Part shown: piece by piece, positions 14,325 to 14,786 of the stretch
How the letters are laid out: the number at the start of each line of letters is the position of its first letter
Position numbering within the stretch: position 1 is the stretch's first letter
Origin: Escherichia coli
GTDB lineage: Bacteria; Pseudomonadota; Gammaproteobacteria; Enterobacterales; Enterobacteriaceae
Strand: one strand, 5' to 3'
NCBI RefSeq assembly: GCF_044647545.1
Contig: NZ_CP172818.1
Length of the DNA stretch: 64,000 bases
Made by a program: the position numbers and the translations under genes
The notes under the pieces: generated by a model
What the model was told of the DNA's origin: nothing
Seen by the model: only the letters and a program-made list of their open reading frames with translations
Databases searched by the model: none

Positions 14325-14786
14325 CTTAAAAACCTATCCCGTCTAACACAAAGTGCATACATTACCACGACAAAACGGGGGATTCGCGGCCTTCTGACAG
14401 AATGTTGCAATCTTCTGCTGACAAAGCGTGCAACGTACTGGTGAAGAAAGTGCGTTATCTCAATGATGTGCGCAAGATCACAAAAATGATGAACGGGAAG
14501 CTAATTTATTCCTGGCTTGTATGGCCATGCAGTGAGTTTTTTTCTCTTAATTATAAGTTAACGAAGAGAATATATTTCATAACTTTTATTTATAATAAAG
14601 GTTGATAATTAAAAGCCTATATTTTGTGTGGGTAATTATTAAAATAAGAGAAACGTTTCGCTGGTAATCAAACAAAAAATATTTGCGCAAAGTATTTCCT
14701 TTGTCATAAAAATAATACTTCCAGACACTATGAAGTTGTGAAACATAATGTTAACTTCTCCATACTTTGGATAAGGAAATACAGAC

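Follow-up and report, generated by a model that had tools for sequence, protein, structure and literature searches.

Gene loss and the composite control region between ddlA and iraP in Escherichia coli

Why do 462 bp of AT-rich DNA separate the divergent genes ddlA and iraP in Escherichia coli, and what do they contain? We addressed this question in a stretch of 64,000 nucleotides (contig NZ_CP172818.1; hereafter, the window) from an E. coli strain other than K-12, in which the ddlA-iraP spacer is 100% identical to that of strain FDAARGOS_497 and 98.5% identical to that of MG1655. IraP is one of three anti-adaptors deciding the survival of RpoS, the general stress sigma factor, and iraP transcription has so far been explained mainly by guanosine tetraphosphate (ppGpp) and DksA, plus PhoP in Salmonella. 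The original prediction, made from the letters alone, had described the interval as an unusually long, non-coding leader that could hold additional regulatory elements, a small RNA or a small protein. Our analysis indicates that it is probably a composite control region produced by gene loss, in which a CRP island and an RbsR-type operator may feed into iraP.

Conservation and origin of the spacer

Invariant columns were counted in an alignment of the spacer from six Escherichia lineages, namely E. coli, E. albertii, strain E69 and three that are unnamed or cryptic, with the fourfold-degenerate sites of the same genomes as neutral yardstick (78/166 invariant in ddlA and 13/24 in iraP, ~0.48). 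Conserved and variable segments alternate along the spacer:

14325-14424, minus strand: ddlA block, 85/100 columns invariant
14425-14464, no strand: hypervariable stretch from the ddlA block to the CRP island, 15/40 invariant, below the ~0.48 baseline
14465-14514: CRP island, 40/50 invariant (80%)
14515-14544, no strand: deletion junction, the most variable stretch of the spacer, 3/30 columns invariant in Escherichia
14545-14604, plus strand: AT-rich segment, 41/60 invariant
14605-14640: segment with 19/39 invariant
14647-14663, no strand: operator, 17/17 scored columns invariant
14664-14688: segment with 7/27 invariant
14689-14786, plus strand: iraP promoters, 82/98 invariant

The CRP island stands out both from its flanks (40/50 versus 18/70 invariant columns; Fisher p = 4e-9) and from the fourfold-site rate (binomial p = 3e-6). 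Judged from the alignment, conservation beyond the iraP core promoters falls on three elements: the ddlA block, the CRP promoter and the operator. The additional regulatory elements that the original prediction had considered are thereby borne out, in the form of a CRP site with a promoter core, a peak of FNR in chromatin immunoprecipitation sequencing (ChIP-seq) and a conserved RbsR-type operator, and the comparison across the Enterobacteriaceae, in which a lack of conserved elements was to have counted against that prediction, did find them.

The length of the spacer was examined by synteny in 80 loci retrieved with an IraP profile, one genome per species, on which ddlA and the intervening open reading frames (ORFs) were mapped. 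The usual order in most genera is ddlA, an extensin-like gene (PF06904), a major facilitator superfamily (MFS) transporter gene and iraP, with both intervening genes present in, for example, Salmonella, Citrobacter amalonaticus, C. sedlakii, Enterobacter, Lelliottia, Leclercia, Kosakonia, Phytobacter and Franconibacter. The top NCBIfam match of the MFS gene is MdtG, at 543 bits and under the cut-off of 571, and the gene is treated here as an MdtG-like transporter, probably a paralogue. The extensin-like gene is missing in a minority (Yokenella, Cedecea, Entomohabitans, Enterobacter soli and one E. asburiae), and both intervening genes are missing in all six Escherichia lineages and in the Citrobacter sp. 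NCU1 group.

Only three pieces of the E. coli spacer (14325-14406, 14478-14504 and 14648-14786) find a match in other genera. The ddlA-proximal piece aligns with ddlA-proximal DNA of Salmonella, Citrobacter, Enterobacter and Kosakonia. In Salmonella and Citrobacter, the middle piece has its counterpart in the interval separating the extensin-like gene from the MFS gene, just upstream of the latter, and the right-hand piece corresponds to iraP-proximal DNA of other genera. By multiple alignment the right-hand homology reaches ~14545, and the left-hand homology ends at ~14504-14514. A blastx search of the Escherichia spacer found no credible protein remnant of either the extensin-like or the MFS gene. 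Taken together, the alignments support well the loss of the intervening gene or genes in the Escherichia ancestor, which brought ~190 bp of control DNA from the ddlA/MFS side and ~240 bp of MFS-iraP DNA together at a junction of 30 bp; the spacer is long because two ancestral intergenic regions were joined. The original prediction had rightly noted a long, AT-rich spacer and had missed this cause. In C. amalonaticus S646 (L014:1790-2500), the extensin-like gene and the CRP box are kept and only a fragment of the MFS N-terminus remains (SWKVNLI-MWY), which reads as an independent loss of the transporter caught partway.

The gap, put originally at about 460 bp, measures exactly 14325-14786, and its AT-richness is confirmed by a GC content of 0.344 against 0.508 for the window. 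The composition is uneven, at 0.449 for 14325-14500 and 0.280 for the 286 iraP-proximal bp (14501-14786). A horizontally acquired AT-rich island was ruled out, the AT-rich part being homologous to the DNA upstream of iraP in Citrobacter and Salmonella. The spacer was found in 5422 of 5426 complete E. coli genomes and is undivided in 5394 of those 5422. The first 50 kb of the window hold nine divergent intergenic regions, of which the spacer is exceeded in length by one, the 525-bp hemB-ehaB region, so that the description as unusually long is moderately true: the spacer is long, though not extreme.

A CRP site and an orphaned transporter promoter

The conserved island at 14465-14514 consists of a near-consensus CRP site and a putative promoter core directed toward iraP:

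14467-14482, no strand: CRP binding site TGTGCGCAAGATCACA, centre 14474.5, half-sites TGTGC (14467-71) and TCACA (14478-82)
14483-14514, plus strand: putative orphaned class II-type promoter core, spacer AAAATGATGAACGGGAAGC followed by the -10-like hexamer TAATTT (14502-14507)

The site carries one mismatch to TGTGAnnnnnnTCACA and matches TGTGA-N6-TCACA at 9/10 half-site bases, and both of its half-sites are invariant across Escherichia. Two matches at ≤1 mismatch per 64 kb is the level expected by chance (shuffle mean 1.85), and the motif count alone is therefore no evidence; the only other such match in the window is TGTGACACTTGTCACG, at 51424-51439. A Footprint-seq preprint of January 2026 (PMC12871828) reports a novel CRP site at K-12 position 401077, labelled 'ddlA / iraP', with a dissociation constant (Kd) of 1.2 nM in vitro, the fourth by ascending Kd among its novel sites below 10 nM. 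Within the literature searched, the preprint is the only paper in which the sequence of the site occurs. Furthermore, an FNR ChIP-seq study places a summit at U00096.2 400,328, corresponding to window ~14505 and lying ~30 bp from the CRP site, and assigns it to the operon iraP as FNR-repressed, with the remark 'TSS not in peak region' (TSS, transcription start site). The FNR peak is independent in vivo evidence for a CRP-family protein at the CRP island. For these and later conversions, NC_000913.3 (K-12) coordinates equal window plus 386599 and U00096.2 coordinates equal window plus 385823; the agreement within 1 nt of two independent start-site datasets supports the conversion.

In 42 fetched loci an orthologous CRP box, perfect or with one mismatch, lies 128.5-131.5 bp 5' of the MFS ATG. 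In other genera a conserved 17-nt spacer, AATATGATGACTGGGAA, and then GATAAAAC come after this box, with a TAAAAY hexamer 27.5 bp from the CRP centre and no -35. The distance from the box to ddlA ranges from ~140 to ~850 bp across genera, whereas that to the MFS ATG is fixed, which ties the box to the MFS gene and not to ddlA.

In class II CRP promoters, of which galP1 is the textbook example, CRP is centred near -41.5 and there is no -35 element. The Escherichia island resembles them in having a near-consensus box 27.5 bp 5' of an A/T-rich, -10-like hexamer and no recognisable -35, and differs in that the orphan promoter has no downstream gene of its own and no mapped start, its dependence on CRP being predicted. 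It also differs in the unusual conservation of the spacer between box and -10 (16/19 columns invariant in Escherichia, against 5/6 for the hexamer), which hints at a second bound factor. The predicted start, at ~14514-14516, would place the CRP centre at ~-39.5 to -41.5, and hypervariability begins exactly where the predicted transcript does. The orphan promoter, on the iraP side of the box, faces iraP, 272 bp away, and a scan of 14200-14900 detected no terminator-like site between the two.

Two further observations concern this promoter and its relatives. In genera that retain the MdtG-like MFS gene, its leader of ~90 nt is strongly conserved (L026:975-1078, L012:890-992, L086:995-1098) and contains CGCATCTCTGG and AACTTGCTAATCTGT.GGCGAATTCGCCTAAAAATGAAGA, along with the palindrome GGCGAATTCGCC. 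Such conservation points to an RNA element or to a further regulator; a permissive scan of the Enterobacter copy (L026) gave no Rfam match. In the Citrobacter sp. NCU1 group (L009:2388-2403, L010, L011), a second CRP-like box, TGTGATTATTAACACA, occurs ~105 bp 5' of iraP, at the position of the -35 of the upstream E. coli iraP promoter (window ~14672-14690), in a class II-like placement; E. coli has at that position only ATTTGCGCAA, a second copy of the left half of its upstream CRP site.

An RbsR-type operator upstream of iraP

The second conserved element lies within the iraP-proximal, AT-rich part of the spacer, which also contains a previously predicted NagC site:

14647-14662, no strand: LacI-family palindrome AGAGAAACGTTTCGCT, RbsR-type, centre 14654.5, with the inner GAAACGTTTC at 14650-59
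14545-14646, plus strand: AT-rich far-upstream iraP DNA, homologous to the Salmonella segment with the PhoP boxes and the PhoP-dependent start
14618-14640, minus strand: NagC site predicted in silico, aataattacccacacaaaatata (FITBAR paper, PMC3098098)

The palindrome, which is nearly perfect, matches the core of the K-12 rbsD operator, AGCGAAACGTTTCGCT (within tcaGCGAAACGTTTCGCtga), at 15/16 positions, the next base, G, also being shared, and it is the sole match at ≤3 mismatches in the window. At ≤2 mismatches it occurs in 50 of the 80 loci, always 120-145 bp before the iraP start codon and at no other place in the 410 kb of these loci, and the core AAACGTTTCG[CT]T is present in 56/80. It is found in S. 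enterica as well, inside the PhoP-dependent leader. Its centre lies at -65.5 from the upstream iraP start and at -109.5 from the downstream one.

The resemblance to the RbsR operator of rbsDACBK thus extends over a 16-bp palindrome identical at all but one position, and RbsR binding at iraP is predicted. The two copies differ in placement, in that the rbsD copy lies just 5' of the start codon and represses, whereas the iraP copy is 65.5 bp 5' of a transcription start, a position more typical of activation; the left half-site of the iraP copy also varies by genus (AGAG, AGAA, AGCA). Other LacI-family regulators were considered as binders. Cra half-sites contain TGAA, and Cra would rank below RbsR, both half-sites of the operator lacking the T. 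The PurR box, ACGNAAACGTTTGCNT, has the central AAACGTTT in common with the operator and differs from it in the flanking bases; PurR was ruled out, as no region was reported by PurR ChIP-chip between codBA (354 kb) and tsx (431 kb), and the corresponding paper makes no mention of iraP, yaiB or ddlA.

Genetic data from Salmonella are relevant here. Wenner et al. 2024 recovered transposon insertions in iraP and in rbsR from the same succinate-growth screen and found that deletion of either gene lowers RpoS protein, the effect of RbsR not being on rpoS transcription. They proposed no link between RbsR and iraP, and our literature search found no further paper naming the two together in a regulatory context. 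A direct RbsR-iraP link fits the Salmonella data if RbsR activates from -65.5, and the operator, being family-wide, would offer a direct mechanism for the unexplained post-transcriptional rise in RpoS brought about by RbsR. In five loci of Cedecea and relatives (L069, L075, L076, L078 and L081), the region at -160 to -100 from iraP carries CAGAC(T/G)GAATC(G/A)TTTTAAT and no RbsR-type palindrome, and in such loci the regulator may have been swapped while the site location was kept.

The DNA around the operator has a known counterpart. In Salmonella, iraP is transcribed from a PhoP-activated promoter with PhoP boxes and a 218-nt leader (Tu et al. 2006, as related in PMC3335776). Transcripts of iraP with long leaders can thus occur in a close relative. 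E. coli 14545-14786 aligns with this upstream region, but the PhoP boxes and the TCCGTG -10 are both missing at the aligned E. coli positions, and Cappable-seq records no start there. The FITBAR NagC site is probably not significant, because it is poorly conserved, falling in the stretch with 19/39 invariant columns. In strain Ec-U7, a urine isolate from Burkina Faso, a tolerated IS1A insertion at ~14566 (L085:2757-3454) sits between the CRP island and the operator and parts the orphan promoter from iraP.

Mapped transcripts, control of iraP and competing explanations

Published start-site maps, two RNA and coding features within the spacer, and the flanking genes complete the description of the locus:

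13230-14324, minus strand: ddlA, with its ATG at 14324
14325-14424, minus strand: ddlA 5' untranslated region (UTR) and promoter block, with a predicted extended -10, TGgTAATGT, at 14367-14359
14402-14605, plus strand: RefSeq/PGAP 'hypothetical protein' WP_001317654.1, 67 aa, annotated in thousands of E. coli genomes
14683-14764, plus strand: iraP core promoters, with starts at 14719/14720, 14738 (weak) and 14763/14764
14692-14701, plus strand: GTATTTCCTT, a perfect complement (10/10) of the iraP ribosome-binding region AAGGAAATAC (14773-14782)
14787-15047, plus strand: iraP coding sequence, 86 aa (PF10796, anti-adapter IraP), served by the spacer's right-hand part and followed by phoA

Both start-site maps were made from cells in log phase, grown in M9-glucose or rich medium, and SMRT-Cappable-seq kept only long transcripts. 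On the ddlA side, SMRT-Cappable-seq maps a reverse-strand start at K-12 400951 (window 14352), giving ddlA (b0381) a 28-nt 5' UTR. On the iraP side it maps starts at K-12 401318 and 401362 (window 14719 and 14763), and Cappable-seq maps plus-strand starts at window 14720 (U00096.2 400543, score 298), 14738 (400561, 3.3) and 14764 (400587, 168), with none between the yaiZ area and 14720. The sequence suggests a -35 TTGCGC (14683-14688) and a -10 TAAAAA (14707-14712) for the upstream iraP promoter and an extended -10 TGtTAACTT (14749-14757) for the downstream one. The same starts head iraP-phoA(-psiF) transcripts (window 14763-16563, flagged 'novel' relative to RegulonDB in the SMRT-Cappable-seq data), which indicates that iraP and phoA can be co-transcribed.

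The iraP leaders measure 23-68 nt, the figure varying with the start site and the dataset, and ~370 bp of the spacer is untranscribed in the start-site data. The spacer is a composite, mostly untranscribed control region and not an mRNA leader, and the term leader applies only to its last 23-68 nt. The K-12 start-site data, which the original prediction had proposed consulting, place the main starts of iraP at 14720 and 14764 and that of ddlA at 14352, and show no plus-strand start further upstream in the spacer and none for a small RNA. Promoters requiring cyclic AMP (cAMP) and CRP could have escaped maps made in log phase on glucose or rich medium. The established control of iraP, through a promoter activated by ppGpp and DksA (Bougdour & Gottesman 2007 and Girard et al. 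2017, as related in papers that cite them), falls within the strongly conserved core at 14683-14764; it covers at most the last ~100 bp of the 462, and the CRP island and the operator lie outside it.

Neither a small RNA nor a small protein emerged from the spacer. An Rfam scan of 13900-15300 (E <= 10) returned only chance matches to eukaryotic families, at E 0.85 or worse, no terminator-like sites were detected in 14200-14900, and a small RNA would have no start site of its own. A consensus promoter scan gave three promoter-like hits, no more than shuffles did, and is blind to class II promoters. The helix between GTATTTCCTT and AAGGAAATAC appears in both the minimum-energy and the centroid fold of 14515-14790 (z-score -2.7); GTATTTCCTT is absent from the mapped short iraP transcripts and would be present only in RNA starting upstream of the mapped promoters, and a function for the pairing is speculative. 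The 67-aa ORF bears on the claim that the spacer is non-coding, which is contradicted by the RefSeq/PGAP annotation and holds if, as we judge very likely, that annotation is a false gene call. The ORF is unannotated in K-12, where its start codon is TTG, in each of the five Escherichia lineages other than E. coli its frame is broken by in-frame stops or frameshifts, neither Pfam nor NCBIfam gives it a match, and it spans both the CRP site and the deletion junction. We rejected it as a gene on its broken frame in relatives and its lack of a family match, and, as it is the sole sizeable ORF, the suggestion of a small protein fell with it.

The CRP site, the LacI-family operator and the sigma-70 promoters at this locus are all elements of a known type, and together they suggest how the composite region may work. 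The CRP island would have been kept by selection because it is still active, most likely as a cAMP-CRP-dependent, FNR-competed promoter or upstream site through which carbon and oxygen act on iraP. The operator at -65.5 would be bound by RbsR, or by another regulator with its specificity, which would stimulate the upstream iraP promoter when ribose is absent. These two inputs, with ppGpp/DksA at the core promoter, would set the level of IraP and hence the stability of RpoS. The action of CRP and of RbsR on iraP is read from sequence and position. A stronger version, which we regard as possible though doubtful, is that the orphan promoter has been taken over as a cAMP-CRP-activated, FNR-antagonised source of long iraP transcripts, with the anti-Shine-Dalgarno element at 14692-14701 tuning translation, and that RbsR directly activates iraP across the Enterobacteriaceae; if true, direct activation by RbsR would account for the lower RpoS, and for the growth on succinate, of Salmonella that has lost rbsR.

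Several results weigh against this account of iraP control. At the orphan promoter, neither Cappable-seq nor SMRT-Cappable-seq, made under conditions of low CRP activity, recorded a start near 14515, the -10-like hexamer is weak and has G as its first base in two lineages, and the evidence for CRP binding is in vitro and comes from a preprint. The reported repression of iraP by FNR is unexpected for a simple class II activator site. As for the operator, it is absent or replaced in 24 of the 80 loci, those of Leclercia, Silvania and Cedecea among them; the classical role of RbsR is repression, and the Salmonella phenotype would need activation of iraP; and Wenner et al. 2024 left the mechanism of RbsR open and suggested over-expression of rbsD.

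Competing explanations must accommodate the same data. If the length were simply debris of gene loss and only the core ddlA and iraP promoters mattered, one would expect what is seen at 14425-14464, 14515-14544, 14605-14640 and 14664-14688, all very variable, as well as the tolerance of IS1 at ~14566 in one strain and the lack of a mapped start at the orphan promoter. One would not expect a CRP island 80% invariant and an operator 100% invariant, against ~48% at fourfold sites, each sharply bounded by variable flanks, nor nanomolar CRP affinity in vitro and cross-linking of FNR there in vivo, and we hold this explanation to be unlikely. That the CRP site serves ddlA, as a distal activator or repressor site retained after the transporter was lost, is quite improbable. 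In its favour are the position of the site, 122.5 bp upstream of where ddlA transcription starts, the naming of both genes as candidates in the preprint, and the fact that in genera without the extensin-like gene the site also falls within a ddlA-MFS divergent region; but in most genera ~800 bp and a whole gene separate it from ddlA, so that it is not an ancestral ddlA site, and where the two are adjacent its distance to the ddlA ATG varies (137.5-163.5 bp) while that to the MFS ATG is fixed within 3 bp. The conservation, moreover, extends to the plus-strand spacer and -10, and -122.5 is an unusual position for direct CRP action.

A long regulatory 5' leader or a small RNA across much of the 462 bp, acting in cis or in trans, would have a precedent in the 218-nt leader of the PhoP-dependent Salmonella transcript, which lies in homologous DNA. 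The orphan promoter could supply such an RNA, and a hypothetical transcript between 14515 and iraP has a better fold than shuffled sequences (z = -2.7), with GTATTTCCTT paired to the ribosome-binding site. The fold score is modest, though, and owes part of its value to DNA palindromes, and the mapped leaders of 23-68 nt, the lack of plus-strand starts from yaiZ to 14720, the lack of an Rfam match or terminator-like site, and the lack in E. coli of the Salmonella PhoP boxes and -10 make this explanation decidedly unlikely. A real gene at 14402-14605 is scarcely credible: its annotation by PGAP in thousands of E. coli genomes is set against a frame broken in all other Escherichia lineages and a start codon lost in K-12, the lack of a family match or of any plus-strand start upstream, and its extent across a factor site and the deletion junction.

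If the composite control region acts on iraP as proposed, an orphaned, high-affinity CRP promoter would tie carbon status and oxygen to iraP, and would be a clean case of a promoter that has outlived its gene and is still under selection. The interest of the locus is moderate and mainly for researchers of RpoS control. Elsewhere in the window, the DUF2773 gene at 22010-22428 is a RefSeq pseudogene without its N-terminus and is followed by a 27-aa 'hypothetical protein'.

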